Assembly (NCBI GenBank): GCA_046351555.1
Contig: JAXLYI010000029.1
Coordinates: 109,727-165,768, forward strand
DNA from: Polyangiales bacterium
GTDB lineage: Bacteria; Myxococcota_A; Polyangia; Polyangiales; Ga0077539
Reading direction: 5' to 3'
DNA: 56,042 nt
In this document: in pieces, positions 10,317 to 56,025 of the stretch
Position numbering within the stretch: position 1 is the first letter of the stretch
How the letters are laid out: each line of letters starts with the position of its first letter
Position numbers and translations under genes: made by a program
Notes under the pieces: model-generated
Database searches by the model: none
Told to the model about the DNA's origin: nothing
What the model saw: the letters and a program-made list of their open reading frames with translations, nothing else

Positions 10317-10796
10317 ATGTCCGCCGTGAAGCCCGCCGAGGGCATCAAGCTCATCGCCGAGAACCGCCGCGCCGTCGTCCGCTACCACGTCGACGAGCGC
10401 ATCGAGGTGGGCGTCGCCCTCATGGGCTCGGAGGTGAAGAGCCTCCGCGAGGGCAAGATGGAGATCGGCGACGCCTACGCCGTCGTGCAGAACCACCAGC
10501 TCACGCTGATCAACGCGTACATCCCGCCCTACCGCTACGCGACGCTGATCAAGCACGAGGAGAAGCGCTCGCGCCGCCTGCTCGCGCACCGCGCGGAGAT
10601 CGACCGGCTCGACGGCAAGGTCTCGCAGCGCGGCTACACGCTCATCGCGCTGCGCGCGTACTTCAAGGACGGCAAGGTGAAGATCGAGCTGGGCCTCGCG
10701 CGCGGCAAGGAGACCGCCGACCGGCGCCAGGAGATCAAGAAGCGCGAGCAGGACAAGGAAGCGCGCGCCGAGATGGTGCGCGGCCGCAAGGGGTAG
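10317..10796 (+). CDS. smpB: SsrA-binding protein SmpB
   Basis: Canonical SmpB sequence: IAENRRAVVRYHVDERIEVGVALMGSEVKSLREGK...GYTLIALRAYFKDGKVKIELGLARGK. Confidence 0.95.
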   Translation: MSAVKPAEGIKLIAENRRAVVRYHVDERIEVGVALMGSEVKSLREGKMEIGDAYAVVQNHQLTLINAYIPPYRYATLIKHEEKRSRRLLAHRAEIDRLDGKVSQRGYTLIALRAYFKDGKVKIELGLARGKETADRRQEIKKREQDKEARAEMVRGRKG

Positions 10797-10851
10797 TCAC
10801 CCCTTCCGAGTGTTCTCCGCGGCTCGTATTCGTCGATCGAACCCGTCGTCC

Positions 10852-11094
10852 GCGCCGTCGCCCAGGGTTCGCCCGCCTGCCCTCGCTGAGTGGTTTAGGC
10901 TCCCCCTGGGCTTCGAGCATGGGATCATCCGCCCGGTGGCGGATTCCGGGAGCAGGCGGGAATCGCGGGCGTCGCACGTCGCCCTCGTCGCCTCGTTGGG
11001 AGCCCGGTACCGACCGGGCGATCCCATGCTCGAAGCCCAGGGGGAGCCTAAACCACTCAGCGAGGGCAGGCGGGCGAACCCTGGGCGACGGCGC
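10852..11094. repeat. family-A palindromic hairpin element, copy 1 (perfect ~75-bp inverted arms + ~93-nt structured loop)
   Basis: Left arm 10852-10926 is the exact reverse complement of right arm 11020-11094 (core cgcccagggttcgcccgcctgccctcgctgagtggtttaggctccccctgggcttcgagcatgggatc). Confidence 0.85.
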
Positions 11095-11157
11095 TGGGCG
11101 ACGGCGCGGACAGCGAGAATTGACGACCCCATGGAGCACCTCGAAACGAGGTGTTCG

Positions 11158-11787
11158 TCACCACCCGAAGCGAAGCCCGATGCCCGCGGTGAAGAGCCCA
11201 CCGCGCAGCGGGACGTCGCCCGCGATCACGTTGTACCCGCTCACCTCGGGGACGAGCCACCAGCGCTCGCCGAGCCGCGCCTCCGCGTTGACGAAGGCGC
11301 CGAGCCACGCGCCGCCCGCGCTCCCTCCCGCCTCGGGGAGGTAGAGGCCCGCGCCGAGCGAGGGCCCCGCGGAGAGCGCCCAGGTGCGCGAGAGGCGGTA
11401 CGTCACCGGCACCGTGGCGGCCGCGAAGAGGTGGACCGCGTTGGTCGTGGTCGACGTGAGCGGCGTGCGGGCGAACGACAGCTCCGGCGCGACGGCCACC
11501 GACCACGCGCCGCGGTGGACGAAGCGGACGGTGGCGAGCGCGCTCACGCCCACGGTGTAGAGCCTGACGCCGACGTCGAAGTCGTCGGTGACGCCGCGCT
11601 GGAGCCCGAGCGCGCCGTAGCCCGTGGGCGAGCGCGCCCCCGTCTCGCGGTCGGCGAGCGCGCCGCCGGCGGCCACGAGCGACGCCTGCCAGTGGCCCGC
11701 GGGGACGGGCTCGGCGCTCCGGTACATCGACGTCGACGGGCACCCGAGCGCGAGCGCCGCCAGCACACTAACGGCGCGGGTTCGCAT
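11158..11787 (-). CDS. outer-membrane beta-barrel-like protein (lipoprotein signal)
   Basis: Signal MRTRAVSVLAALALGCPS; alternating hydrophobic pattern; C-terminal GIGLRFGW with a terminal aromatic. Confidence 0.6.
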   Translation of the reverse strand: MRTRAVSVLAALALGCPSTSMYRSAEPVPAGHWQASLVAAGGALADRETGARSPTGYGALGLQRGVTDDFDVGVRLYTVGVSALATVRFVHRGAWSVAVAPELSFARTPLTSTTTNAVHLFAAATVPVTYRLSRTWALSAGPSLGAGLYLPEAGGSAGGAWLGAFVNAEARLGERWWLVPEVSGYNVIAGDVPLRGGLFTAGIGLRFGW

Positions 11788-12769
11788 CGAAGAACCTCAC
11801 GATCTCCTCGCTGGCGTTCACGTCGCGCGACACGCGGCCCACGGTGTCGACGTCGAGGTACTGGTGGCCGCCGGGCCAGGTGTGCCCCCCGCCCTCGACG
11901 CGCAGGTGAACCACCGGCGCCGCGCAACCTTGCCATGTGCGTCGGGTGACGCGCGTCCCATCGGCGGCCGCATCGGCGAGGGCCTCGTCGCGCGCGTCGG
12001 CGCCGCAGCCGTTGCGGGCCCTCCAGCCCGCGAGTGTCTCGTCGACGCCCACCTTGCGGCCCTCTTCGAGGAAGGCGCAGGTGCTCGTCCGCGTCTCGTA
12101 GCCCCAGCACGGGTCGTCGACGCCGTGGATCTGCATCACCGGCACGCGCGCGTCGCAGCGCCCGCCCGCGACGGCGAACTGGTTGGTGCCGCCAACCGCG
12201 GCGAAGGCGGCGACCACGCCGGGGCGCTCGCACGCGAGGCGGTGCGAGACGGCGCCGCCGTTGGAGAGGCCCGTGACGAAGACCCTGCGGCGGTCGACGG
12301 GGACGCTCTTCTCGACGGCGGCGAGGAGGCGGTCGAAGAACGCGACGTCGTCGACGCCCGACTGGCACGCGCCGCGGCTCACGCACTGCCAGCCGTCGCG
12401 GCCGCCGCCCGCGTTCCATGAGCGGACGTTGCGGAGCGGGCGGAGGCCGGTGCCGTCGGGGAAGACGACCACGTAGCCCGCGGCGAGGGCCACGGCGGAG
12501 AGGCACCCGGGCTCGCCGGGCGTCCCCGTCGGGCACGTCACGCTCTCGGCCGAGCGCCGGTTGCCGCCGCCACCATGGAACGCGACGATGACGGGCAGCG
12601 CCGCCGTCCCGTCCCACCGCGCGGGCACGCGCAGCGAGAAGGCGCGGTCGAACTCGCCCTCGACGGGGCACTCGAGCGAGGCCCCAGGCGAGGCGCGGCC
12701 GCAGGGGTCGAGCGTGGTGAGGCAGCCCGTGAGGATCGCCCCCGTCGCGAGGAGGAGAAGCCGGCCCAT
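11768..12769 (-). CDS. esterase / PHB-depolymerase family lipoprotein (alpha/beta hydrolase)
   Basis: Signal MGRLLLLATGAILTGC. Motifs VIVAFHGGGG, nucleophile GLSNGG, IHGVDDP. Confidence 0.75.
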   Translation of the reverse strand: MGRLLLLATGAILTGCLTTLDPCGRASPGASLECPVEGEFDRAFSLRVPARWDGTAALPVIVAFHGGGGNRRSAESVTCPTGTPGEPGCLSAVALAAGYVVVFPDGTGLRPLRNVRSWNAGGGRDGWQCVSRGACQSGVDDVAFFDRLLAAVEKSVPVDRRRVFVTGLSNGGAVSHRLACERPGVVAAFAAVGGTNQFAVAGGRCDARVPVMQIHGVDDPCWGYETRTSTCAFLEEGRKVGVDETLAGWRARNGCGADARDEALADAAADGTRVTRRTWQGCAAPVVHLRVEGGGHTWPGGHQYLDVDTVGRVSRDVNASEEIVRFFDANPRR

Positions 12770-12796
12770 CGCCGACGACGATACCTCAACCGCGCG

Positions 12797-12845
12797 TCAA
12801 AACGTGTGGCTCCAGCGGCTGCCGGCGATCACGTTGCCGACGCCA
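12797..12845. repeat. duplicated copy of the last ~45 nt plus stop codon of phoD, placed on the far side of family-A copy 2
   Basis: tcaaaacgtgtggctccagcggctgccggcgatcacgttgcc here, versus tcagaacgtgtggctccagcggctcccggcgatgacgttgcc at 13117-13165. Confidence 0.75.
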
Positions 12846-13081
12846 CCGCCCAGGGTTCGCCCGCCTGCCCTCGCTGAGTGGTTTAGGCTCACCCTGGGCT
12901 TCGAGCACGGGAGCGCCCGGTCGGTACCGGGCTCACGACGAGGCAACGAGGGCGACGCGCGATGCCAGCAATTCGCGCCGGCTCCCGGAGTCCGCCACCG
13001 GGCGGACGATCCCATGCTCGAAGCCCAGGGTGAGCCTAAACCACTCAGCGAGGGCAGGCGGGCGAACCCTGGGCGGTGGCG
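12841..13081. repeat. family-A palindromic hairpin element, copy 2 (inverted relative to copy 1)
   Basis: Arms and loop are the reverse complement of copy 1. The arm substitutions (cccc->cacc, gtcg->accg) are mirrored in both arms, so the self-complementarity is preserved. Confidence 0.85.
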
Positions 13082-13122
13082 CGGGCGACGGCGTATTCTG
13101 GGCGGCGCATTCAACGCGCGCG

Positions 13123-14746
13123 TCAGAACGTGTGGCTCCAGCGGCTCCCGGCGATGACGTTGCCGGCGCCGTTGACGAACTCCGCGCGCAGCGTGCGGGT
13201 GGCGGGGTCGGCGCGGAGCACGGTGTAGTTGTGCGTGCCGATCACCGAGACGGGCCACTGGCCGTCGCGCAGGGGCGGGCGGCCGTCGCGGTCGGCGCCG
13301 GCGGGGCCCATGATCACCTCCCAGATGTCGGCGAAGGGGCCGGTCGGCTCCACCTTGCAGACGCCGCCGAAGTGGACGTCGCCCGAGAGCCACACCACGC
13401 CGCGGAGGCGGTTGCTGTCGATGTGGCGGAGGATCTCCTGGCGCTGCGAGGCGTAGCCGTTCCAGTTGTCGGCGTCGGCGCCCGCGCGGTCGACGATGGG
13501 CACCGAGTTGACGATGAACTTGAACACGCACGGCGACGCGCGGAGGCCCGCCTTGAGCCAGTCCATCTGCGCGCGGGAGATGTACTGCGAGCGGCGCGCG
13601 ACGTTGGTCGAGCGCGTCGACGGGAGCCGCTCGCTGCGGCAGTCGAGCACGAAGATCTCCGCGGTGCGCCCCCAGCGGAAGCTCCGCCAGATGCGCTCGG
13701 GCGCGGCCGCGTTGCGTCGCGTGGCGCGGTGCTCGAAGAAGGCCTGGCGCGCGGCGGCGAGGCGCGCGGCGCTCAGGGTCTCGGGGTCCCAGTTGTTGAG
13801 CACCTCGTGGTCGTCCCAGGTGAGGTACATCCCCGTCGAGCGGTGGAGCGCGCGGAGGCCCGCCGACGTCCAGTTCTGCTCGTACTTCGCGCGGTACTGG
13901 GCGAGCGTCGCCGCGTTGTCGGCGTAGTCCGTGTAGACGTGGTCGCCGGCGTGGATGAAGAAGTCGAGGTCGTCGCGGCCGCCGGCGTGCTGGAGCGCGG
14001 GGAAGGGCCGGTGCCGCTGGTTGGTGCACGACGTCCCGCCGAACACGAGCGGCACGAGCGCGTCGGGCGCGGGGGCGGTCTGCACGCGGCCGACGAGGCT
14101 CCGCCCGGTGGGGGCGCCCGCGGGGCCGACGAGGAAGGCGTAGAGGTGCTGCTTGTTGGCGCGCAGCCCGTTGACCACCGCGCGCACGTAGCCCGCGGAC
14201 GACGCGTCGACCGCGCCGTCGAAGCGGACCGCGGCGATGCGCGCGCCGTTCATCTCCAGCACGCGGAGGCGGACGGCGCCGGTGCCGGCGTAGCGCGTCC
14301 AGAAGATCACCGACGTGTCGGTCGCGTCGCCCGCCATCACCCCGAGCGGAAACTGCGCCGCACGCTCGGGCAGCGAGCGGAAGTCGGGGTCGGCCACCAT
14401 CCCCGCGTCGCGCGCCACGTCGGGGCGGGCGGCGTCGACCCGCGCCACGTCGGGCGCCGCGTCGAGGCGAACCACGTCAGGCGCAGCGTCGGCGCGCGCG
14501 TCGAGGGAAGCGTCGCGGGCTGCGTCCAGCGCGGCGTCGGGCGCAGCGTCTTCCGCAGGCGCGGCATCCACTGCAGCGTCGTCACCCGCGTCGTCGCCCG
14601 CGTCGGGGTCGATCGGCATCGCGTCGTAGGTGGGGTCGGGCCCGGCGTCCTCGATCGGGTCGGGCGTGTACACCTCCTCGTCGGCGCAGGCCACAGCGCA
14701 CACGGCCCCCGCGAGCTGAACGAACCGTCGTCGGGTGAGCTTCATC
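13123..14746 (-). CDS. phoD: alkaline phosphatase D family (PhoD), Tat-secreted
   Basis: Twin-arginine signal MKLTRRRFVQLAGAVCAVA. Metallophosphatase motifs GDHVYTD, TWDDHEV, SGDVHFGG. Confidence 0.85.
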
Positions 14747-14828
14747 GCCCTCAAGCTCCTAACACACCGGGCGCGCCGTCGATCGCGCGGCCGCCGCGGA
14801 AAGCGCCGTGATAGCCTCCGCGCCACCA

Positions 14829-15098
14829 ATGGCCCGCATCACCTGGGACGACGGCGGCGAGGCGACCCTCGGCCCCGTCCACGACGTCACCGTCACCCTC
14901 GTCGACTCCACCCGCGCCTATCCCCCGGGCGCGCCGGTGCGCGGCACGCTCCACGGCGCGTCCGACGTTGCCTTCACGCTCAAGGTCGCGGGTTCGAAGC
15001 GTGAGGGCGAGGGCTTCACCGTCCGTGGCAAATTGGTGAGCGCCACCACCGCCGTGCGCGACGCCTTCCACGCGCTCAGCGCGCCACCCCCAGCCTGA
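14829..15098 (+). CDS. small hypothetical protein; its 3' end is duplicated after the adjacent repeat
   Basis: ORF MARITWDDGGEATLGPVHDVTVTLVD...GKLVSATTAVRDAFHALSAPPPA, divergent from phoD. The last ~22 codons recur at 15403-15487. Confidence 0.35.
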   Translation: MARITWDDGGEATLGPVHDVTVTLVDSTRAYPPGAPVRGTLHGASDVAFTLKVAGSKREGEGFTVRGKLVSATTAVRDAFHALSAPPPA

Positions 15099-15142
15099 AC
15101 TTCCGCTGGCTGCCTTGCGACCATGCGCCCCGGGCCCGTCGA

Positions 15143-15391
15143 GCCTCCATCCCCGCTCGCTTCGCTCGCGCGTTTCCCCTTCCTCCGCCGCAGGAAGCGG
15201 CAGAGGAAGGGCATCAGGCTCGCCGCGGACGTGCGTGGCTCGGGCGTCCCTCGTCGCGACGTCGCGTTCATGCGTGGGCGTCATCGTCGCGTCGGTGCCG
15301 AGGCGTATTCGGTGCCGCAACCCCCTTCCTCTGCCGCTTCCTGCGGCGGAGGAAGGGGAAACGCGCGAGCGAAGCGAGCGGGGATGGAGGC
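15143..15391. repeat. family-B palindromic hairpin element, copy 1 (~68-bp arms, ~108-nt loop)
   Basis: Arm gcctccatccccgctcgcttcgctcgcgcgtttccccttcctccgccgcaggaagcggcagaggaaggg is mirrored at 15321-15391. Flanked by ~100-115 bp direct repeats (14996-15110 and 15390-15487). Confidence 0.85.
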
Positions 15392-15557
15392 TCGAAGCCC
15401 GCGGCAAATTGGTGAGCGCCACCACCGCCGTGCGCGACGCCTTCCACGCGCTCGGCGCGCCACCCCCAGCCTGAACTTCCGCTGGCCGCCGCCCGCCCAA
15501 CGCATGGCCGCGGCTGGCCACCCGCGCATCGTGCGCCCCGGGTCACCATGGCGGCCC

Positions 15558-17462
15558 ATGAGCCACACCCTCCGCCTCGCCGCCGCACTCGCCTTCGCGG
15601 CCGTCGCGTCGTGCTCCGACGCGTCGCCCCCGGCGCAGTCCGACGGCGTCGAGACCTTCGCCAACCCGCCCGAGCTCGCCCCCGACGCGCAGGGCAACTA
15701 CACCCTCCGCCTCACGCCCGCCGCGGTGGAGGTCGGCGGCCAGCGCTACTGCCTCCGCACCTACAACGGCAGCGTGCCGGGCCCCACCATCCGCGTCCGG
15801 GCGGGGACGAACCGCCGCCTCCACGTCACCCTCCGCAACGAGCTCACCCGCTCGGACTGGCGCGAGATCTCGGGCATGGAGGGCCACGAGGCCCCGAGCT
15901 GCCACGACTTCAACGTCACCAACCTGCACTTCCACGGCGGGCACGTCCGCCCCGATTTCGCGGCCGCCGACCCGGCCGACCCGTGCGTCGGCGACGGCTG
16001 CGGTGACGGGCAGCGCTACCACGGCGACAACGTTCTCATCGCGGTGCAGCCCGCCGGGATGGCCCGCTACCGCTGGGACCTCGACGAGGACGGGACCCAC
16101 CACGAGGGGACCCAGTGGTACCACCCGCACATCCACGGCTCGACGGCGATCCAGGTGATCAACGGGGCCGCCGGGGCGCTCATCGTGGAGGGCGCGCTCG
16201 ACGCCGAGCCCTCCGTCGCGGCGACGCGCGAGCGGGTGATGGTGATCCAGGAGATGCCCCTCGCCCACCAGTACACGCGGCCCCTCGCGGCGGGCGAGGC
16301 GTGCACGGTCAACAACCTCTCGGTCAACAACTTCCTCTCCGTCACCGAGGGGATGCCGATGGCCGTCAACGGCAAGGTGAAGCCGCGGCTCGTCACCGCG
16401 CCGGGCCAGGTCGAGCGCTGGCGCATGGTCTACGCCGGCACGCCCGACGAGATGGGGATGAAGCTCCACCCGTCGAGCGACCCCAACTGCGGGACGTTCG
16501 ACATCACCCGCCGCGTCGAGCTGGTGCAGTACGCCCGCGACGGCATCACCATGCCGCGCTACTACCGCAACGACACGGTGTGGGTGTCGCCGGGCTACCG
16601 CGTCGACTCCTTCGTGCAGATGCCCACGACGCCGCAGACGCTCTGCCTCGTCGGGCGCCGCACGCACGACCTCCTCGGCAGCGTGATCGCGATCGTGGAG
16701 GTGCGCGCGGGCCGCACGCCGACGGCCACGCAGCTCCCGCCGGAGTCCGCGGTGACCGCGCACGCGCCGCCCACCACCTGGACGGGCCGCGTCGACGGCG
16801 CGATGACCACCGTGAGCTGCGAGTCGGTGACGCGCATCCACCAGCGCGTGTCGCTGCTGACCACGCCGGTGCCGTCGGGCTCGTCAGCGATGATGTCGTC
16901 GGGGGCCGCGTGCACACCGCCGGCGGGCCCGCACGACCCGCACGCGGGCGCGCCGGTGTGCCAGTGCCCGGCGCCCAACATCAACTGCCGGAGCTTCGAA
17001 GACCGCCGCTTCCGCAACTACCGGAGCGACCGCGTGGCGACGGTGGGCGACAGCGAGAAGTGGGAGATCGTCGCGGCCGACGGGCACCCCTTCCACATCC
17101 ACATCAACCCCTTCCTCGTGTGCGCCAACGACTCGAACAAGGAGCCCAACTTCCCCCACTGGCGCGACACCTTCTGGGTGCAGGTCGACGACCGCCCGCG
17201 CCAGGTGATGATGAACTTCCGCGCCTTCACCGGCCGCTTCGTCACGCACTGCCACAAGCTCAACCACGAGGACGAGGGGATGATGGAGCTGTTCGAGCTC
17301 TGCGCCCCCGGCGACACCGCGTGCCTCTGCCAGCGCATGGAGGGCGGCGCGTGCGTGAGCCAGGCGGGCTGCCAGGCCGACGACCGCCAGTGCCAGTTCG
17401 CGGCGCTGGCGGCGGCGAGCTTCCCGCGCCCGCCGATCCCGCCGCCGGGGCTCTGCAACTGA
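15558..17462 (+). CDS. multicopper oxidase (lipoprotein)
   Basis: Signal MSHTLRLAAALAFAAVASCSD. Copper-ligand motifs NLHFHGGH, WYHPHIHG, HPFHIHINPF, HCHKLNHEDEGMM. Confidence 0.85.
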   Translation: MSHTLRLAAALAFAAVASCSDASPPAQSDGVETFANPPELAPDAQGNYTLRLTPAAVEVGGQRYCLRTYNGSVPGPTIRVRAGTNRRLHVTLRNELTRSDWREISGMEGHEAPSCHDFNVTNLHFHGGHVRPDFAAADPADPCVGDGCGDGQRYHGDNVLIAVQPAGMARYRWDLDEDGTHHEGTQWYHPHIHGSTAIQVINGAAGALIVEGALDAEPSVAATRERVMVIQEMPLAHQYTRPLAAGEACTVNNLSVNNFLSVTEGMPMAVNGKVKPRLVTAPGQVERWRMVYAGTPDEMGMKLHPSSDPNCGTFDITRRVELVQYARDGITMPRYYRNDTVWVSPGYRVDSFVQMPTTPQTLCLVGRRTHDLLGSVIAIVEVRAGRTPTATQLPPESAVTAHAPPTTWTGRVDGAMTTVSCESVTRIHQRVSLLTTPVPSGSSAMMSSGAACTPPAGPHDPHAGAPVCQCPAPNINCRSFEDRRFRNYRSDRVATVGDSEKWEIVAADGHPFHIHINPFLVCANDSNKEPNFPHWRDTFWVQVDDRPRQVMMNFRAFTGRFVTHCHKLNHEDEGMMELFELCAPGDTACLCQRMEGGACVSQAGCQADDRQCQFAALAAASFPRPPIPPPGLCN

Positions 17463-19229: not shown

Positions 19230-19389
19230 ATCACGCGGCCGAAGCGGCCGATCGTCTCCCGCGTCACGGCGGCGACGCTATCACGCGAAGCGCCGCGGCG
19301 TGTTCGCCAGCGCGTCCTCTGGTATGGGTCACGACCTGCCATGAAGACACCGACGCCCTCGCTCGGCAGGTGCGCGCGGGCGGGGCGAC

Positions 19390-19690
19390 GTGCTCGACTG
19401 GCGCGGCCGGCGCGACCTCATCGACGGATTCGAAGCCGCCGACCTCCCCGCCGACGTCGCGCGCGCCCTCCTCGCCTACTGCGACCGGATCGGGGTCCAA
19501 TTCGCGGCCTTCGACCTCGTCGAGGACGCCGACGGCGTGTTGTGGTTCATCGAGGGCAACACCACGGCCTACTGCACCACTTCATCGAGCGGGCGACGGG
19601 ATTGCCCATCAGCGAAGCGATCGCCGACCTGCTCGTGGGTGCGCTTCCCCCGCGCCCCGCGCCGACGCGCGGAGCGCCGACGGGTTGAGC
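19390..19690 (+). pseudogene. C-terminal fragment of an ATP-grasp-like enzyme, frameshifted
   Basis: RDLIDGFEAADLPADVARALLAYCDRIGVQFAAFDLVEDADGVLWFIEGN in one frame continues as HHFIERATGLPISEAIADLLVGA in another. No N-terminal half present. Bracketed by ~70-bp direct repeats (19301-19370 / 19741-19810). Confidence 0.4.
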
Positions 19691-19780
19691 GGCGCCACCA
19701 GGCCGAGTCCCCACCGTCAAAGCGAGCGTCGCCCCGCGGCGTGTGCGCCCGCGCGTCCTCTGGTATGGGTCACGCCCTGC

Positions 19781-20555
19781 CATGAAGACACCGACGCCCT
19801 CGCTCGGCAGCGCGCTCTGGCTCCCGTGCGCCCTCGCGCTCGCGTGCAGTGGGGCGACGCCTCCTCGTCCGATCGTTCCCCTCGCCTCAGCGGTCGTCGC
19901 GCCCGAGCCCGACCCGGACGGCGACGGCCTCACCGGATCGAGTGACCGGTGCCCCGACGCGCCCGAAGACTGCGACGGCCACGACGACGCGGACGGTTGC
20001 CCCGACCCCGACGACGACCAGGACGGCGTCGCGGACGTGTGCGACGCATGCCCCGAGGAGCGGGGCGCCGCGCCGGACGGGTGCGCGCACCTCGTCATCG
20101 TGGAGCAGGCGCAGCTCCGCATCCTGCGGGGCGCCTGGTTCGCGCGCAGCAGCGCCGTCCTCACGCCGACGTCGCGCCTGCGGCTCGACGAGGTCGCGCA
20201 GGTGCTGGTGAACCAACCCCAGATCCGCCGCGTGGCCGTCGAGGGGCACGCCACGCGCGACGAGCGCGACCCCGGGCGCCTCTCGGCGCGGCGGGCCGGA
20301 GCCGTGCGGGACTACCTCGTCGCGCGCGGGGTCGACGCAGCGAGGTTGGAGACGCAAGCGCTCGCGGACACGCGCCCCGTCGCCGCGCCCAACGAGACGC
20401 ACGCCGCCGAGCGGAACCGCCGCGTGGACTTCCGCGTGCTCGACGTGGAGGAGCCAGCGCCGCACTCGTCACACCCGCGCGTGGTAGTGCCGGTGGGCTG
20501 CCCCGACCACCCGCCGCCGCCGGCCCGCGGGCCGTGCCGTCCGCCGCCGACCTGA
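19781..20555 (+). CDS. OmpA-family lipoprotein with thrombospondin type-3 Ca-binding repeats
   Basis: Signal MKTPTPSLGSALWLPCALALACSG. DxDxDG repeats: DPDGDGL, DADGCPDPDDDQDGVAD. OmpA C-domain signature FARSSAVLTPTSRLRLDEVAQVL...VEGHATRDERDP...SARRAGAVRDYL...NRRVDFRVL. Confidence 0.8.
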
Positions 20556-23504: not shown

Positions 23505-24722
23505 TCACTGCATGAGGCGCCGGAGCAGCGCGAGCTTGCGCGCGTTGGGCGTGCGCCAGTCGTCCTGGAGCACGCCCCCGGTGTCGCCGGCGTTGGCGTT
23601 GAGCGCCCAGTAGAAGAAGCCGCGGAGGTCGCGGGCGGCCATCCACCCGACGACGGCGTCCTGCCACGCGACGTCGCCGGCCGCGCGCGCGTCGTCGTAC
23701 CACCCGCAGAACTCACCGATGAGCACGTTGTGCCCGGCGGCGTGGAGGTGGCCGAAGTGGCGCTCCCAGATGGCGGGCATGTTGCGCGGGAAGTCGGCGG
23801 CGTCGAAGTAGGGCATCCGCGCGACGCTCGGGCCGTAGACGTGCGGGGAGTACACGAGGCGCTCGCGCGGGAGGCCGACGGGCTGGGCGGCGGCCTCGGT
23901 GAGGTTCTCGCCCCAGAAGACGCTCTGGCCGCCGTTGTCGGAGGCGTTGCCGACGCCCTCGACGAACACCAGCACGCGCGGGTTGCGGCAGAGCACGGCC
24001 TCGCCGCCGGCCTGCGCGAGCTCGCGCCACTCCGACCAGCGGAGGGCGTGGGGCTCGTTGCAGAGGTCAACGCCGAGCACGACGGGCTGGTACGCCTCGG
24101 CGAGCGCGGCGAGCTCGCGGAGGTCGGCGAGCCACTGCGCGCGGTCGTAGCCGGCGCACGCGATTGGCGAGCCCGGGAGCGAGCCCCCGAGGCGCGAGGC
24201 GTCGCAGATGTGGAAGTCGAGGAGCACGCGCATGCCGCGCGACCGGCAGTGCCCGAGGAGGGCCTCGAGCTGCTCGCGGCCGGTGTCGATGGACCCGCGG
24301 TTGGCCCAGCCCGCGGAGGCGTTGCCGGGCCGGATGCTCGACGGCGAGAGCGGCACGCGCAGCGCGGTGAACCCGAGCGAGAGCGCCTGGTCGACGAACT
24401 CCTCCATCGGCCGCGCCCACAGCCCGTGCGGCGCGCGGTCGGGCGTCTCCAGGCCGAACCAGTTGAGCCCCCACACGGGCACCGTCCGGTCGCCGTAGTA
24501 GACGCGCGACCCCTCGGCGCGCCACGAGCCCTCGCGCGGCACGCGCTGGCCGCAGACCGTCACCTCGCCCGACGCGCCGTCGGTGGGCGCGACGTCGGTG
24601 GCTGCGACGTCGGCGAAGGCATCGTCGGGGGCCGCGACGTCGAGCGGGACGTCCGCGGGCGGGCCCGCCGAGGCGCCGCAGGCGGTCGCGAGCACGGCCA
24701 GCGCGAAGAGGGCGCTTCTCAT
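23505..24722 (-). CDS. glycoside hydrolase family 5 (endoglucanase-like) lipoprotein
   Basis: Signal MRSALFALAVLATACG. Catalytic motifs LCNEPH (acid/base) and GEFCGW (nucleophile region). Confidence 0.8.
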   Translation of the reverse strand: MRSALFALAVLATACGASAGPPADVPLDVAAPDDAFADVAATDVAPTDGASGEVTVCGQRVPREGSWRAEGSRVYYGDRTVPVWGLNWFGLETPDRAPHGLWARPMEEFVDQALSLGFTALRVPLSPSSIRPGNASAGWANRGSIDTGREQLEALLGHCRSRGMRVLLDFHICDASRLGGSLPGSPIACAGYDRAQWLADLRELAALAEAYQPVVLGVDLCNEPHALRWSEWRELAQAGGEAVLCRNPRVLVFVEGVGNASDNGGQSVFWGENLTEAAAQPVGLPRERLVYSPHVYGPSVARMPYFDAADFPRNMPAIWERHFGHLHAAGHNVLIGEFCGWYDDARAAGDVAWQDAVVGWMAARDLRGFFYWALNANAGDTGGVLQDDWRTPNARKLALLRRLMQ

Positions 24723-27361: not shown

Positions 27362-27433
27362 GGTGCGGTAGCCAAGAGGCCAGGCCACGGTTTGCAAAAC
27401 CGTTATACGTGGGTTCAAATCCCATCCGCACCT
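27362..27433 (+). tRNA. tRNA-Cys (anticodon GCA)
   Basis: Acceptor stem GGTGCGG/CCGCACC. Anticodon stem ACGGT/ACCGT with loop TTGCAAA. T-arm GTGGG-TTCAAAT-CCCAT. Discriminator T; CCA not encoded. Confidence 0.75.
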
Positions 27434-30538: not shown

Positions 30539-30567
30539 AGGGGGCGAATCGGTGGCGAGGCGCCGCG

Positions 30568-31560
30568 TCAGCGCGCGTCGGGGTCGGCAAGCCAGACAGC
30601 GAGGGCGTCGGGGGCGAAGTCGAGCACGACGTCGCCGAGGCGGACGGGGCCGACGGTGCGGAGGCGCTCGGCGATCGTCGCGCGCTCGCCGTCGGAGAGG
30701 GCGCGGCCGAGGCGGCGCTCGAACTGGTGCGTGATTGGGAGGAGACCCTGCGAGAGGCCCTGCGAGAGGCCCTGCGAGAGGCCCTGCGAGAGGCCCTCGT
30801 CGCGGGCCCGTGCCTGGTCCCGTTCGTATGCTGCCTGCACGGCGTTCATGAATTCCTCGTCCTCCTCGGTGCGCGTGGGCTGCTGGGCGATGTAGCTACG
30901 CCATTGTACCAGAACGTCCAGGAGCCTGTGCTCCCAGGCATCGGGCGGCAGTCGGCGCAGGGCTTCGACGGCACGCCGGAAGATCTCGCCGCGACCGAGT
31001 AACCGGCAGGCGAGCGTCTCCGGCGTCTCCGGCAGCTCCGCGGCGACCACCACCCACAGCCCGAGCTCGTCGTGGGTGCGGAACACCCCCGGCGGATGCC
31101 CCTCCGCTGCGCCGCACGCGAACACCTCCAGCGCCCCCTCGGGCCGCCCCGGCGAGATCACGATCGCGCGGGGCATCGGCGTCGACTTCGGTGGGTCGTC
31201 GCGCCGCCCCTCCAGCTCTCGCACGTGGTGCTGGACCCAGAGGCGCCGGACGCAACCGCGCACCGCCGGGACGGGCGGCGTGTTGCGGAAGGGCTCGAGG
31301 TGGCACTCGCGCGCGTCCACCAGCGCGCCGAGCAGGCCGCGCTGCAACCGAGCGGCGTGGTGCGCCGCGTCGGGCCGGAAGAGCACGTCGACCCGCTGCG
31401 TCGCAGCCCCACTCTCCACCCCGCGCTCCACCGTCCCCACGTCGCGCAGCGCCGTGACCAGCAGGTCCTTCCCCAAGGCGTCGTGTCGCTCGCGCATGGC
31501 CGCGCGGTCGTCACACGGTACGCGGGACGGCGCAAGGTGGACGTCGAACGCGGTGGACAT
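30568..31560 (-). CDS. Rpn/YhgA-like putative PD-(D/E)XK nuclease (Transposase_31-like), paralog 1, with 4x GLSQ tandem repeat
   Basis: N-terminal HDALGKDLL resembles the Rpn-family HDALFK box. C-terminus resembles DUF4351. Near-identical to the 34858..35814 copy. Confidence 0.55.
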   Translation of the reverse strand: MSTAFDVHLAPSRVPCDDRAAMRERHDALGKDLLVTALRDVGTVERGVESGAATQRVDVLFRPDAAHHAARLQRGLLGALVDARECHLEPFRNTPPVPAVRGCVRRLWVQHHVRELEGRRDDPPKSTPMPRAIVISPGRPEGALEVFACGAAEGHPPGVFRTHDELGLWVVVAAELPETPETLACRLLGRGEIFRRAVEALRRLPPDAWEHRLLDVLVQWRSYIAQQPTRTEEDEEFMNAVQAAYERDQARARDEGLSQGLSQGLSQGLSQGLLPITHQFERRLGRALSDGERATIAERLRTVGPVRLGDVVLDFAPDALAVWLADPDAR

Positions 31561-33384: not shown

Positions 33385-34788
33385 CTACCGGCAGAAGCCC
33401 CACATGCACGTGAGCCCGGCGCCGCAACGGCCCACGAGGCAGCAGATCTGGCCGCGGCTGCCGCAGTTGCAGTTCCCCATCACACACGCGCCGCTCGCTG
33501 CGCAGGCCCGGCCGCAGGCGCCGCAGTGGGCGTCGTCGGAGGCGGTGTTCACGCAGCGCCCGCCGCAGACCGTCTGGCCCGAGGGGCACCGGCATGTCCC
33601 ACCCACGCACGACGCACCCGTGGGGCACGCAGTGCCGCAACTGCCGCAGTTGGCGACGTCGGTCATCAGGTTGGTGCAGCCGGCGCCGCACACCGACTGG
33701 CCCGTTGGGCACTGGCAGCCGCTCGAGACGCAGGTCTGGCCCGTGCCGCAGACGCGCCCGCACGACCCACAGTTGCGCGGGTCGCTCGTCGGGTCGACGC
33801 AGGCGCCGGCGCAGGTGATCCGCGGTGAGTAGCACGAGGCCGCCGTCGCACAGTCCCCAGACACGCACGCGCGCCCCGACGGGCACGTTCCCCCACAGCG
33901 CCCACAATGGGCCTGCGTGCTGAGGAGCGGCACCTCGCAGCCGTTGGCCTCGGTCGCGTCGCAGTCGCCATAGTTCGTCGCGCACGCGAAGCCGCACGCG
34001 CCTGCCTGGCAGGTGGGCGTGGCGTTGGCGCGCGCCTGACACGCCACCCCGCAGCCGCCGCAGTGCATGAGGGCGGTGGCGGTGTTCACCTCGCAGCCGT
34101 TGGCCTCCATCGCGTCGCAGTCGGCGAAGCCCGTGGCGCACGCCGGCCGGCACTCCGCCGCGACGCAGGCGGGCGTGCTGTTGGGGCGCGCGGCACAGGC
34201 GCGGCCGCACATGCCGCAGTGGGAGGCGCTGGTGGTGGTGTCGACCTCGCAGCCGTTGGCCGCGTTGCCGTCGCAGTCCGCGGCGCCCGCCTGGCAGACG
34301 CAGCGGCCGAAGGTGCACGACTGCCCGTCGGCGCACTGCTGGCCGCAGCCGCCGCAGTGCTGGGGGTCGATCTGCGTGTCGGCGCAGAGCTCACCGCATC
34401 GCGTGCGGCCCGCCGGACACACGATGTCCGCCGCGTCGTCGCCCGCGTCCGCCGCGCCGTCGCCCGTGTCCGCCGCGTCGTCGCGGGCGTCACCCGCGTC
34501 GACTTCGTCCGGGGCGTCCGCGGCAGCATCGTCGTCGGCGACGTCCCCGTCCGCTGCGTCGCCGTCGTCCGTCGCGCCCGCGTCCTCGTCGAGCACATCG
34601 TCGCCCGTCGCGGCCTCTTCGTCCGCCGCGTCGAGGCCGCCGTCCGCGTCGCCGCCGTCCGCATCGGCGACGACCTCCGGCCCCCACCCCGCGTCGCCGC
34701 TCGACGCCGGCCACCGCAGCGAGCAGCCGGCGAGCACGACGAACACCAGCGCCCACCGCCCCCACGCCCGCGACGCCGCGACATCCAT
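33385..34788 (-). CDS. secreted Cys-rich repeat lipoprotein (paralog of 21665..23500 family)
   Basis: Signal WALVFVVLAGCS. Acidic D/A-rich linker. More than 8 repeats of CxxxxxDxxNCGxCGxxC. Confidence 0.65.
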   Translation of the reverse strand: MDVAASRAWGRWALVFVVLAGCSLRWPASSGDAGWGPEVVADADGGDADGGLDAADEEAATGDDVLDEDAGATDDGDAADGDVADDDAAADAPDEVDAGDARDDAADTGDGAADAGDDAADIVCPAGRTRCGELCADTQIDPQHCGGCGQQCADGQSCTFGRCVCQAGAADCDGNAANGCEVDTTTSASHCGMCGRACAARPNSTPACVAAECRPACATGFADCDAMEANGCEVNTATALMHCGGCGVACQARANATPTCQAGACGFACATNYGDCDATEANGCEVPLLSTQAHCGRCGGTCPSGRACVSGDCATAASCYSPRITCAGACVDPTSDPRNCGSCGRVCGTGQTCVSSGCQCPTGQSVCGAGCTNLMTDVANCGSCGTACPTGASCVGGTCRCPSGQTVCGGRCVNTASDDAHCGACGRACAASGACVMGNCNCGSRGQICCLVGRCGAGLTCMWGFCR

Positions 34789-34857
34789 CGCGGCGGATCA
34801 CAGCGCAGCGCCCCTGCGCCGTCAAGCGCGCGGAGCGGCGGCGGGGCGGAGGCGTCG

Positions 34858-35814
34858 TCAGCGCGCGGCGGGGTCGGCGAGCCAGGCGGCGAGGGCGTCG
34901 GAGGCGAGGTCGAGCACGACGTCGCCGAGGCGGACGGGGCCGACGGTGCGGAGGCGCTCGGCGATCGTCGCGCGCTCGCCGTCGGAGAGGGCGCGCCCGA
35001 GGCGGCGCTCGAACTGGTGCGTGAGTGGGAGGAGGCCCTGCGAGAGGCCCTCGTTGCGGGCCCGTGCCTGGTCTCGTTCGTATGCTGCCTGCACGGCGTT
35101 CATGAATTCCTCATCCTCCTCGGTGCGCGTGGGCTGCTGGGCGATGTAGCTGCGCCATTGTACCAGAACGTCCAGGAGCCTGTGCTCCCAGGCATCGGGG
35201 GGCAGGCGCCGCAGGGCTTCGACGGCACGCCGGAAGGTCTCACCGCGGCCGAGGAGCCGGCAGGCGAGCGTCTCCGGCGTCTCCGGCAGCTCCGCGGCGA
35301 CCACCACCCACAGCCCGAGTTCGTCGTGGGTGCGGAACACCCCCGGCGGATGCCCCTCCGCTGCGCCGCACGCGAACACCTCCAGCGCCCCCTCGGGCCG
35401 CCCCGGTGAGATCACGATCGCGCGGGGCATCGGCGACGACTTCGGTGGGTCGTCGCGCCGCCCCTCCAGCTCCCGCACGTGGTGCTGGACCCAGAGGCGT
35501 CGCACGCAGCCGCGCACCGCCGGGACGGGGGGCGTGTTGCGGAAGGGCTCGAGGTGGCACTCGCGCGCGTCCACCAGCGCGCCGAGCAGGCCGCGCTGCA
35601 ACCGAGCGGCGTGGTGCGCCGCGTCGGGCCGGAAGAGCACGTCGACCCGCTGCGTCGTCGCCCCGCTCTCCACCCCGCGCTCCACCGTCCCCACGTCGCG
35701 CAGCGCCGTGACCAGCAGGTCCTTCCCCAAGGCGTCGTGTCGCTCGCGCATGGCCGCGCGGTCGTCACACGGTGCGCGGGACGGCGCAAGGCGGACGTCG
35801 AACGCGGTGGACAT
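34858..35814 (-). CDS. Rpn/YhgA-like putative nuclease, paralog 2 (1x GLSQ)
   Basis: Differs from paralog 1 at roughly ten residues plus the GLSQ copy number. Confidence 0.55.
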   Translation of the reverse strand: MSTAFDVRLAPSRAPCDDRAAMRERHDALGKDLLVTALRDVGTVERGVESGATTQRVDVLFRPDAAHHAARLQRGLLGALVDARECHLEPFRNTPPVPAVRGCVRRLWVQHHVRELEGRRDDPPKSSPMPRAIVISPGRPEGALEVFACGAAEGHPPGVFRTHDELGLWVVVAAELPETPETLACRLLGRGETFRRAVEALRRLPPDAWEHRLLDVLVQWRSYIAQQPTRTEEDEEFMNAVQAAYERDQARARNEGLSQGLLPLTHQFERRLGRALSDGERATIAERLRTVGPVRLGDVVLDLASDALAAWLADPAAR

Positions 35815-43594: not shown

Positions 43595-45454
43595 CTACGG
43601 CACCGGCATCTCGAACTGGACGCAGTAGTTCCGCTGGTCGCTGTGGAAGGTGAGCTCGGCCTCGCCCGTCGCGCCCATCCACGGACGGGAGAGCGTGACG
43701 GCGCCGTCGGTGCGGGCGGTCACGATCGTCTCCCCCGTGAGCCCGACCCCTTCGACGAGGTCGCGCACGCCGCGGGCCGCGAAGGCCGTCGCCGCGACGC
43801 CCGTGACCATCGTCGACCCGCGCGTCACCCGCGCGCGAATCACCGCGCGGTCGGAGCCCACGTACGGGTCGCTGTCGCGGAGCTGCCCCCGCCGCCCGGT
43901 GCTCGGCCCGCCCGCGTAGCCCGCGACGTCCTGGGTCATCGCGTAGCGCACGGACAGCCCGGTGCCGCGGGGCGCGGCGGCGAGGGTGATGGCGACGCTC
44001 GCCCCCATGATCTGCACGCCGGTGATGCGCAGGCGGCCGGTGCTGTCCTCCACCTCGAAGCCTCGGCCCATCGCCCACTCGGTGTAGGCGCTCTGGTGCG
44101 GCGCGGTGATGGACGTGTCCCAGGCGAGCGGCGCGACGGGCACGTCCATGTCCAGCGTGATCACCGCGCCCGCGCGCCGCGCCGCCCGCGGCTGCAGCGG
44201 CCGCCAGGGGTTGCCGCGCACCACCACCTCGTAGAACACCTGCGCGTACTTGATGCCGAGCCGCGCGTACCCGTAGGCGTCGAAGTGGACCGCGTCGGAG
44301 TACACGTACTGGTACTTCGGCCCGACGCACACCACCTCGCCGGGGTGGTCGACGCCGACGCGCCACTGCGCCTGCGTGGAGAGCGAGCGCGTCCCCATGG
44401 TGTTGGGGAAGGAGGCCTGCTGCGAGACGAACATCACCACCCGCTCGCGCTGCCCCGTGACGGCGCGGAGCTCGCGGTCGTAGTCCGTCCAGAGGCGGTA
44501 GAGGTCGGCCTCGTAGGTGGCGCGGGCGGTGTCGGTCTCGCCGTGCGTCACGATCACGCCGCGGTAGGCGAAGGGGACGCCGGCGGCGCGCGCGAGCGAG
44601 GTGACGGCGCGGGCCTCGTAGAGCGAGGCGGCGAAGGCGCGCCCGGTGCCGTTGCGCTCGATGCGGGTGATGCTCTGGCCGCTCTCGCCGACCACCGAGT
44701 GGACGGTGACGTAGTCCTCGCCGAGGGCCGCGCGCACGCGGGCGGTGAGGTCGTTGGCCATCGCGGCGTGCGGGGTCTCGCCGTAGATGTTGTTGGGGTA
44801 GAGCGGCCCCGCGGGGTACGGGGGCGTCGGGTAGCGCGGACGGATGGGTTCGACCAGCGGGCCGAGGGAGAGCGCGTCGCCCACCCCGTCGTAGAGAGGG
44901 GCGCTGCCGGTGTCGCGGAGGACGCGGTTGTTGTAGGGCTGCGTCGTGTGAATGGGGCGCGCGGCCGTCGCGCCGACCGAGAGGCTCTGCCCCGTACCGA
45001 CGATGCCGATCCAGGCGCGCGCGGGGCGGACGCTCGCGTCGGGGGCGACGTCGGGGGCGACGTCGGGGGCGACGTCGGGGGCGGCGTCGGCCCGGGCGTC
45101 ACCGACCGCGTCGGGGGCGGTGTCGAGGGGAACGTCGAGCGTCGCGTCCGGGGGGGAGGCGACGTCGACGATGTCGGCCGTGTCGGGGGCAGCGTCCGCT
45201 TCGTCCGCGACGTCGGCCGTGATGGAGGCGTCAGGTCCGTCGACGTGATCGCCCGCCACGTCCTCGATGGGGGCGACGTCCTCGACGGGGGCGACGTCCT
45301 CGACGGGGGCGACGTCCTCGATGGGGGCGACGTCGGCGACGTCGGCGCCGGCTTCGAGGCGGTCTTCGGCGGCGTCGACGGGCACATCGCTCGGGCCTTC
45401 CGAGCACGCGACGAGGAGGCCGACGATCCAGACGTGGGCGAGCGGGTGGCGCAT
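43595..45454 (-). CDS. SGNH/DUF303-type carbohydrate esterase lipoprotein (sialate-O-acetylesterase-like)
   Basis: Signal MRHPLAHVWIVGLLVACSEG. D/V/A/P-rich linker. GTGQSLSVG resembles the GQSN catalytic Ser block. Confidence 0.55.
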   Translation of the reverse strand: MRHPLAHVWIVGLLVACSEGPSDVPVDAAEDRLEAGADVADVAPIEDVAPVEDVAPVEDVAPIEDVAGDHVDGPDASITADVADEADAAPDTADIVDVASPPDATLDVPLDTAPDAVGDARADAAPDVAPDVAPDVAPDASVRPARAWIGIVGTGQSLSVGATAARPIHTTQPYNNRVLRDTGSAPLYDGVGDALSLGPLVEPIRPRYPTPPYPAGPLYPNNIYGETPHAAMANDLTARVRAALGEDYVTVHSVVGESGQSITRIERNGTGRAFAASLYEARAVTSLARAAGVPFAYRGVIVTHGETDTARATYEADLYRLWTDYDRELRAVTGQRERVVMFVSQQASFPNTMGTRSLSTQAQWRVGVDHPGEVVCVGPKYQYVYSDAVHFDAYGYARLGIKYAQVFYEVVVRGNPWRPLQPRAARRAGAVITLDMDVPVAPLAWDTSITAPHQSAYTEWAMGRGFEVEDSTGRLRITGVQIMGASVAITLAAAPRGTGLSVRYAMTQDVAGYAGGPSTGRRGQLRDSDPYVGSDRAVIRARVTRGSTMVTGVAATAFAARGVRDLVEGVGLTGETIVTARTDGAVTLSRPWMGATGEAELTFHSDQRNYCVQFEMPVP

Positions 45455-53725: not shown

Positions 53726-53826
53726 CGTCAGCGCGCGGCAGCGTGCAGCACCCCCCCGGCGGGCGCAAGGGCGGCGGTGGCCCCGCTGGGATTCGGAGCA
53801 GGTTCTGTTTCGCGGTGTGGTCGCGC

Positions 53827-54080
53827 TCGCCTCGCCTCCATCCCCGCTCGCCGAGCCTCGCGCGTTTCCCCTTCCTCCGCCGCAGGAAGCGGCAGAGGAA
53901 GGGCGCTGTTTCGTCTCAGACGCTCCGCTCTCGCGCGCTCCGGGCAACGCGTACTACGAACGTCGACGACTCCGAGCCCGCGCGTGCTGTAGATGTTCTA
54001 GAGGCCCTTCCTCTGCCGCTTCCTGCGGCGGAGGAAGGGGAAACGCGCGAGGCTCGGCGAGCGGGGATGGAGGCGAGGCG
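53827..54080. repeat. family-B palindromic hairpin element, copy 2 (perfect 77-bp arms, unrelated ~100-nt AT-richer loop)
   Basis: 53827-53903 is the exact reverse complement of 54004-54080. The arm differs from copy 1 (gccgagcctcg versus gcttcgctcg) with the mirrored change in the opposite arm. Confidence 0.85.
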
Positions 54081-54135
54081 AGCGGGCCCGCACCGCGAGA
54101 CAAAACCTACTCCGAACCCCCACGGCGGCGAGCCG

Positions 54136-55857: not shown

Positions 55858-56025
55858 GGCGCGCGAGCATCCCACGAATCCGCCGCCGGGAGAAACCCGC
55901 GAGCGCGCCCCCCGTCGAAGCGTCGGCTTGCCCACGAGATGCGCAGCGCCTCGCGCGGAAGTGCTTGTCCGCCAGGAGATCCCGGAGGTAGGAGCACCTG
56001 GCTCATCTGCTCGCGGCGCCGAGTG

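Follow-up and report, generated by a model that had tools for sequence, protein, structure and literature searches.

The systems most similar to the long palindromes that we describe here, in 56,042 nt of a Polyangiales genome (Myxococcota; assembly GCA_046351555.1, contig JAXLYI010000029.1, positions 109,727 to 165,768; hereafter the window), are two kinds of dispersed repeat associated with Y1 transposases. Published REPs (repetitive extragenic palindromic sequences) measure 20-40 nt (PMC3733652). REPINs, defined as inverted REP doublets that form hairpins, often have a change on one side of the stem compensated on the other; in a GI REPIN, 71 bp separate the conserved 16-mers (PMC3116915). 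In the TIRtron/TIRYT system, Y1 genes lie between terminal inverted repeats (TIRs), and the same repeats are also scattered singly or as dimers; the motif GGGGWSAS is not universal among published TIRs (PMC3733652). Most published TIRYTs belong to a subclass with a C-terminal helix-turn-helix domain (subclass 2.1; PMC6006769). A full-text literature search for RAYT (REP-associated tyrosine transposase) together with Myxococc found nothing on REP/RAYT systems among the matches listed.

The window contains four complete palindromic elements and one that is truncated, in two families, A and B. We consider it probable that both families are giant REPIN-like, TIR-dimer non-autonomous repeats, in a system driven by a Y1 (HUH) transposase of the IS200/IS605 superfamily. 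Each element consists of two inverted units of ~75-95 nt around a spacer of ~100 nt, with an imperfect hairpin in each unit, and in relatives of family A the same arms enclose a Y1 transposase gene. The elements are part of the REPIN/RAYT and TIRtron/TIRYT world rather than a new class. They are not new in kind, given that compensatory hairpins of REPINs (PMC3116915) and TIRtrons with their TIRYTs (PMC3733652) have been published. What is new here is the scale, an enzyme that is IS200-like rather than RAYT-like, the host lineage, and the long duplications at two of the insertions. If this reading is correct, the REPIN/RAYT and TIRtron paradigm reaches the Myxococcota (Polyangiales), with units two to three times longer than described REPs and arms of up to 107 perfect base pairs.

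The arms of family A recur in 15 metagenomic contigs, 14 from JGI and NCBI and one from ENA. The 14 were found with a gapped pattern made from the conserved A-arm ends, and three of them share an assembly with L002, the near relative used for comparison below. A translated search of the protein database with the first window copy, A1, matched one spurious open reading frame (ORF), on the 690-bp ENA contig (L003). At locus L017, A-type arms surround ~500 nt with a single ORF. Its 149-aa product consists of a Y1_Tnp domain only (Pfam PF01797, E = 4.6e-21) and scores 66 bits, against a cutoff of 55, with the NCBIfam IS200 equivalog model (NF033573); its PDB relatives are IS200/IS605 TnpA proteins only (2fyx, 2xm3, 2a6m). 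The A-type architecture is kept around homologues (142-174 aa) of 59-95% protein identity, and the last residues of the transposase are encoded by the inner end of the right arm:

L018 / L019: arms of 94 nt, perfect; 505 nt between arms
L020-22: arms of at least 54 nt, perfect; 504 nt between arms
L024: arms of 100 nt, 95% identical; 529 nt between arms
L023: arms perfect over 35 nt, truncated by the contig end; 540 nt between arms

A-type arms are thus linked to a clade of Y1 transposases. In its arm apex, small hairpin and outer flank, L024, whose arm is an A1-like variant, is nearest to the family A of the window. At greater distance, the TnpA of L025-27 (47% identity) lies between 99-nt arms, which carry a compensated stem change and the motif GGGGTGAG, and that of L028 (45% identity) between 60-nt arms whose hairpin bears a GTAG tag. 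Several transposase loci share their flanks across samples (L018 = L019; L017 ~ L020-22; L025-27).

Tandem arrays of 27-60-nt units flank the transposase-bearing elements, in inverted orientation on opposite sides (L017 1-330 and 1010-1700; L020 1500-1730; L024 1-120; L025 2090-2230 and 2870-3050). Some of these units correspond to the start of an arm plus its adjacent flank, and the orthologous loci L025 and L027 have unequal numbers of the 27-nt unit.

In the window itself, which has ~75% G+C, perfect reverse-complement arms of 67-81 nt enclose loops of 93-111 nt in the four complete elements. Five loci in two families had been proposed by an earlier, sequence-only reading of this DNA, and an exact search along the symmetry axis, by which the perfect arms were defined, places them within 4 nt of its coordinates:

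10815..10851, + strand: A1 outer tail, outside the perfect palindrome, on the side of the small hairpin ATCCGCC..GGCGGAT
10852-10926 (left) and 11020-11094 (right), + strand: A1 palindrome arms, 75 nt perfect, loop 93
10852..10926, + strand: A1 left arm, holding a 52-nt imperfect internal hairpin, GCCCAGGGT...CCCTGGGC
10927..11019, + strand: A1 loop, with two small hairpins, ATCCGCCCGGTGGCGGAT and GCCCGGTACCGACCGGGC
11020..11094, + strand: A1 right arm, followed by a 13-nt tandem copy of the arm end, 11095-11107 (TGGGCGACGGCGC)
12841..13081, - strand: A2 palindrome, arms 12841-12907 / 13015-13081, 67 nt perfect, loop 107
13082..13116, - strand: A2 outer tail, inserted DNA that is not in the empty site
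15139-15211 / 15323-15395, + strand: B1 palindrome arms, 73 nt perfect, loop 111
15115..15402, + strand: B1 inserted DNA, made up of a 24-nt left extra, arms and loop, and a 7-nt right extra
53783..53823, + strand: B2 outer imperfect arm, left; outer sequence found at the B2 site only
53824..54084, + strand: B2 palindrome, arms 53824-53904 / 54004-54084, 81 nt perfect, loop 99
54085..54125, + strand: B2 outer imperfect arm, right, which stops 10 nt from the Ser/Thr kinase gene's stop codon
56026..56042, + strand: B3, where a B2-type arm begins (CCCATCCCCGCTCGCCG) and is truncated by the window's end

Palindromes of this length are not expected by chance. In 20 block-shuffled windows the longest perfect inverted repeat was 13-16 nt, the runner-up in the real window (spacer of 400 nt or less) is 20 nt at 95%, and the predicted single-stranded DNA folds (-145 and -139 kcal/mol; z = -26 and -20.5) were equaled by none of 200 shuffles; chance is therefore excluded. 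The A arms extend inward imperfectly to 96-103 nt at 89-92%, with two uncompensated mismatches immediately inward of the perfect part in A2. With its outer extension (53783 / 54125; 41 nt extra per side), B2 reaches an imperfect 122 nt at 93%, which reflects either an older palindrome with B in its centre or arm expansion.

A single A arm folds on itself into an imperfect hairpin whose 9-bp base (GCCCAGGGT / ACCCTGGGC) leads through a 2x2 internal loop and a 3-bp step to an apex that varies; after it come CTTCGAGCATGGGATC and a small hairpin of one of several kinds. The tetranucleotide adjoining the A-type hairpin varies (CTTC, CTAC, CTCG) and is GTAG in L024 and L028 only. The B arm forms a 15-bp hairpin with one mismatch (CCCTTCCTCCGCCGC ... 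GCGGCAGAGGAAGGG), and in the variant found in L011 two pairs are altered on both sides.

Beyond the transposase-bearing copies, family A occurs in several forms. Perfect doublets are present in L007 (at least 94 nt), L009 (71 nt), L010 and L012 (107-nt arms, loop 146), single arms in L011, L014 and L015, and a hybrid doublet in L016, whose arms are only 87% alike; among viral contigs, neither the A arm nor the B arm was matched. The A1 outer tail has homologues in the unit that flanks the left arm of L024 and on the corresponding side of A2 and L011. A1, A2 (inverted), L011 and L003 align through the entire loop and have in common a ~35-nt tail on one side only, and given this homology of loop and one-sided tail, what is copied is the doublet together with its tail. 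This A unit of ~280 nt, tail and loop included, recurs at unrelated loci and in different assemblies, and A loops differ more between copies than A arms do.

The earlier description of the A loops as related, with small hairpins, and of the B loops as unrelated was accurate. The A1 and A2 loops are homologous and mutually reverse complementary (A2 is A1 inverted), and no alignment was possible between the loops of B1 and B2. Loop inversion of the adeno-associated virus 'flip/flop' kind, suggested by the reverse complementarity of the A1 and A2 loops, was rejected: the one-sided tail follows loop orientation, and A2 has therefore simply inserted in the opposite direction.

It should be considered whether such structures could come from assembly or amplification, for instance as fold-back chimeras, given that the window derives from a metagenome-assembled genome (MAG) and that inverted repeats longer than the assembler k-mer leave loop orientation ambiguous. 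We regard an artifact as exceedingly unlikely: independent assemblies from NCBI, JGI and ENA show this architecture too, with a coding gene and with loops and tails that are conserved, and the duplicates that flank two of the window elements (see below) have diverged, which is not expected of an artifact.

Other palindromic repeats adjoin some of the related copies. In L003, an 81-bp imperfect-palindrome MITE (a miniature transposable element with inverted repeats; 263-343, ends GTGTCCTTTGGTCTCATTT...) lies inside the A-like arm with a 9-bp duplication (CTTGAAGTC); a second copy of the MITE (1-39 / 405-452) has its centre split by the A-like element, and its mirrored halves form a 101-nt, 99% palindrome. 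In L016, an unrelated long inverted repeat (1215-1345; CCCCACGCTGCACCGCTGCTTCGCCC ... GGGGCGAAGCAGCGGTGCAG) adjoins a single B-type arm, so these genomes hold more than two families of palindromic repeats.

The substitutions that distinguish copies of a family had been reported as mirrored in the opposite arm, and they are real, in family A (ctccccctggg / ctcaccctggg) as in family B (gctcgcttcgctcg / gctcgccgagcctcg). The covariation check gave the same picture more widely. In the joint arm alignment, 37 of 79 columns have two or more states shared by both arms, and mismatches between the arms occupy 14 of 553 cells (hybrid L016 left out), so mirrored variation is general, with exceptions. Within eight doublets or transposase-bearing elements the two arms differ at 0, 2, 0, 0, 1, 0, 1 and 9 positions per ~67 nt; between elements, arms differ at 3-20 positions over the same length. 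The stronger claim that every copy is completely self-complementary holds in this window but not family-wide, as the 87% hybrid and the three single arms illustrate.

The mirrored differences include multi-base and indel changes, pairing is strictly Watson-Crick over 67-107 nt, and palindromy reaches into copy-specific flanks in B2, L003, L007 and L012. Judging from these patterns, arm perfection, including the mirrored multi-base and indel changes and the copy-specific extension, would be best explained by copying of one arm from the other, and selection for a well-paired substrate may add to it. Template switching between inverted repeats is reported to homogenize and expand their arms (PMC8604942, PMC13100816, PMC7202029). 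As a literature comparison, such switching would explain both one-step arm identity and outward growth; it is a mutational process rather than an element family, and it leaves the dispersal of one unit to new loci unexplained. When arm identity is set against the divergence of the flanking duplicates, ~5 mismatches would be expected in A2, where none are seen, and ~1.7 in B1. The A2 comparison is suggestive of in-place arm maintenance and that of B1 is not, so the test is not decisive. The earlier inference that structure rather than sequence is maintained stands in part: a DNA hairpin or a copy mechanism is sensible, the arms of a copy change together far beyond what independent decay would give, and a structured RNA is unlikely for the reasons that follow.

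A near relative shows what the sites look like when empty. Contig WBZM01003640.1 (L002; GCA_009612935.1), which was reached through a 90%-identical PhoD homologue, is collinear with the window from 10.2 to 27 kb at 92-98% nucleotide identity, and no long palindromes were found in it. The sites of A1, A2 and B1 can be compared and none has an element there, so the elements are insertions and have been mobile. At the A2 site, the 3' end of the PhoD-family gene runs straight into the next gene, and at the B1 site the intergenic sequence is present once; both are exact empty sites. At the A1 site the entire intergenic region differs, and it is interrupted downstream of smpB by a 10-N run (about 11050-11060 of L002), which makes the 'empty' state of A1 less certain than that of A2 and B1.

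Every copy in the window is intergenic. smpB (10317-10796) converges with an outer-membrane-like gene (11158-11787, minus strand), and A1 sits between the two. A2 comes directly after the stop codon that ends the PhoD-family gene (13123-14829, minus strand), and B1 is in the intergenic stretch from which that gene and a multicopper oxidase gene diverge. A Ser/Thr kinase gene (54136-55935, minus strand) has B2 at its 3' end, 10 nt past the stop codon, and B3 upstream. Such positions, between convergent genes (A1) or right after stop codons (A2, B2), would fit a structure selected by the host, such as an RNA, a bidirectional terminator or a protein-binding cruciform kept by compensatory point mutations. 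The extreme stability of the predicted folds fits this as well, as does a left arm that is identical in L017 and L020 when the transposase gene between the arms is ~93% identical. Nevertheless, we find this explanation distinctly improbable. Rfam covariance models at gathering score matched only a tRNA (27362-27433) in the whole window and nothing at the elements, the same sites are empty in L002, B1 is in a divergent promoter region, and multi-base or indel differences mirrored in one step fit copying better than stepwise selection. The lack of an Rfam match, the occurrence in both orientations and the absence from the three comparable L002 sites make a structured RNA in particular unlikely. 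Host function and mobility are not exclusive of each other.

Two of the insertions are bracketed by long duplications of their target:

12791..12844, + strand: target duplication at A2, left copy, a relic of the 3' end of the PhoD-family gene
13117..13170, + strand: target duplication at A2, right copy, the PhoD-family gene's functional 3' end, stop codon included
15027..15114, + strand: target duplication at B1, left copy, 88 nt, divergent intergenic region
15403..15490, + strand: target duplication at B1, right copy, with 2 differences from the left copy

The A2 insert of 272 nt (12845-13116) thus separates two copies of a 54-nt target (4 differences, 93% identical), and the B1 insert of 288 nt (15115-15402) separates two of 88 nt. 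Both targets are single-copy in L002, and because both window copies share derived bases relative to L002, the duplications postdate the split from it. The junctions have microhomologies, GCGCC at A2 and CCGC at B1. No flanking duplication was found at A1, B2, L007, L009, L012, L016 or L017.

A third site in the window has the same signature. Direct repeats of 85 nt (19285-19369 and 19726-19810), which hold a promoter region and the beginning of a gene for a lipoprotein, enclose 356 nt (19370-19725) that are a frameshifted fragment of an ATP-grasp gene with no palindrome; in L002 the 85-nt sequence is single-copy and the fragment is lacking. A host process independent of the transposase may therefore contribute to the long duplications, with staggered-break capture or an out-and-back template switch among the candidates.

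One could go further and propose that replication or repair alone accounts for the elements, by copying through fold-back or template switching, by microhomology-mediated break-induced replication, or by end joining that captures DNA at staggered breaks, the link to Y1 being incidental here. The duplications at A2 and B1, the gene fragment with its 85-nt repeat, the junction microhomologies, the palindromy that extends into copy-specific flanks, and the homogenizing and expanding action described for template switching are all consistent with such an origin. It would not, however, account for a ~280-nt A unit that recurs at unrelated loci and assemblies, for arms that co-evolve with a transposase clade over 45-95% protein identity, or for the lack of a flanking duplication in most copies outside the window. 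We therefore judge it improbable as a complete explanation.

Published elements with such long duplications are the IS4-related DDE-type IS1634 and IS1549 only, whose direct repeats are 8-514 bp (PMC2266710). The window elements might accordingly be regarded as MITEs of a similar DDE transposase, given that they have TIRs and that two insertions have long direct repeats of variable, unequal length. The transposase class differs, however: every full-length relative found encodes Y1_Tnp only, and neither the A nor the B arms are linked to a DDE gene. Flanking duplications are also lacking at A1, at B2 and at the copies checked in other contigs. The ends of IS1634 are unlike the 70-107-nt hairpin-containing arms, and overall we hold a DDE origin to be very unlikely.

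Several results weigh against a Y1-driven system for both families. Classical IS200/IS605 elements have neither TIRs nor target duplications (PMC3333891), and the 54- and 88-nt duplications, carried by two of the four complete window copies (A2 and B1), are unexplained by classical Y1 transposition; the non-palindromic 356-nt insert is bracketed in the same way as these two. The L017 protein fails the NCBIfam RAYT model REP_Tyr_transpos (28.7 bits against a cutoff of 80), and the 56-kb window has no Y1 transposase gene. For family B, a transposase with B-type arms was not found, the contexts of distant TnpA proteins (P0128, P0130 and P0131) having A-like or other arms. Against 1.84 billion representative proteins, the translated B1 region produced a single weak match and nothing that is a real relative, and the loops of B are unrelated, unlike those of a doublet copied as a unit. 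A 22-mer of the B arm had a single chance match, in an AT-rich Spirochaetales MAG without a palindrome, among 185,579 species-representative genomes. B-type arms co-occur with A-type arms in L016, L011 and L004. With no partner found and loops unrelated, family B can be assigned to the same kind of system as A by analogy only.

These points leave some room for a different entry route, though we consider it unlikely: the hairpins and the fragment at 19.3 kb would come in by a path that duplicates 54-88 bp and is new for Y1 transposons, B perhaps arising de novo. An excised single-stranded hairpin might be captured at a widely staggered break, or replication might switch template out to a hairpin and back, with the second arm remade by fold-back copying.

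The reading that we favor, a Y1-driven system of giant REPIN-like repeats, places the elements close to three described systems, each with differences. As in REPIN-RAYT systems (PMC3116915), two inverted units with a less conserved spacer form a long predicted hairpin (also in L007, L009 and L012), the repeats are intergenic and occur as doublets, singlets and clusters with compensatory hairpin changes, and in the related contigs L017-L024 a Y1 HUH gene is flanked by A-type arms, at loci that look orthologous between samples. The sequence-only reading had dismissed REP elements and bacterial interspersed mosaic elements (BIMEs) for the length of the arms. That dismissal does not hold for family A, the arms of which are TIRs around a Y1 gene and which has doublets, singlets and hybrids as in REP/REPIN and TIR/TIRtron systems. 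The same reading had named a transposase ORF between the arms, or uncompensated arm mismatches, as evidence against its interpretation, and family A has both, the former in its full-length copies and the latter in L016. Unlike REPINs, the units here are ~75-107 nt and the doublets 240-360 bp, the A unit contains a 52-nt imperfect hairpin, a conserved GTAG/CGTC-type tag is missing, the enzyme is IS200-type by NCBIfam rather than RAYT, and long target duplications occur at two insertions. Repeat density, counted in the window only, is five repeats in 56 kb.

The likeness to TIRtrons and TIRYTs lies in a Y1 gene between TIRs, one of which overlaps the 3' end of the gene, in dispersed singles, dimers and groups, and in repeats with self-complementary tracts. 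The GGGGWSAS motif is exact in L025 (GGGGTGAG) and has one mismatch in family A (AGGGTGAG). In contrast to most TIRYTs, the L017 protein has no C-terminal helix-turn-helix extension, and the repeats here are much longer and nearly perfect. With IS200/IS605 elements (IS608, ISDra2) the family shares its transposase and hairpins near the ends, which are likely recognition elements; it differs in the 94-100-nt inverted arms that flank the gene in place of distinct subterminal hairpins, and in that the abundant form is a doublet without transposase. Retron msDNA, protelomerase sites, attC sites and CRISPR were dropped as readings because there is no reverse transcriptase, telomere resolvase context or array, and because the transposase link explains the architecture.

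We suspect that a transposase encoded elsewhere in the genome excises or copies one strand, which would fold into a long hairpin and re-insert into single-stranded DNA. The hairpin tips of other palindromic elements may be favored targets, giving nested palindromes; such targeting would explain why B2 sits inside an older imperfect palindrome and why the A-like element of L003 is in the centre of the 81-bp MITE. Arms could stay perfect if only well-paired hairpins are good substrates, and replication template switching or mismatch repair may copy arm onto arm, so that the palindrome grows outward.

The elements offer a natural test of what keeps palindrome arms identical, selection on the hairpin substrate or template-switch copying, and raise the question of Y1-type elements that insert with long target duplications. 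They are also relevant to genome stability, MAG quality and annotation. At inverted repeats so long and perfect, replication is expected to stall and short-read assemblies to break, and this may explain why most of the related contigs end inside an arm. In this high-GC DNA, long spurious ORFs cross the elements (window 10810-11949, 12561-13157, 15123-17462 and 53817-54170), and ORFs of this kind have been annotated by gene callers in public assemblies (e.g., P0121).

The window has other repeats as well. A direct repeat of ~500 bp (30566-31077 and 34856-35331) is present 4.3 kb apart at 93-96% identity, and a tandem repeat with a period of 156 nt (33931-34400) has ~3 copies that are 72-80% identical. 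Shorter arrays comprise an 18-nt tandem repeat at 45237-45362 (GCGACGTCCTCGACGGGG) and a 15-nt tandem repeat at 24559-24650, which fall within the window repeat families D1 and D3.

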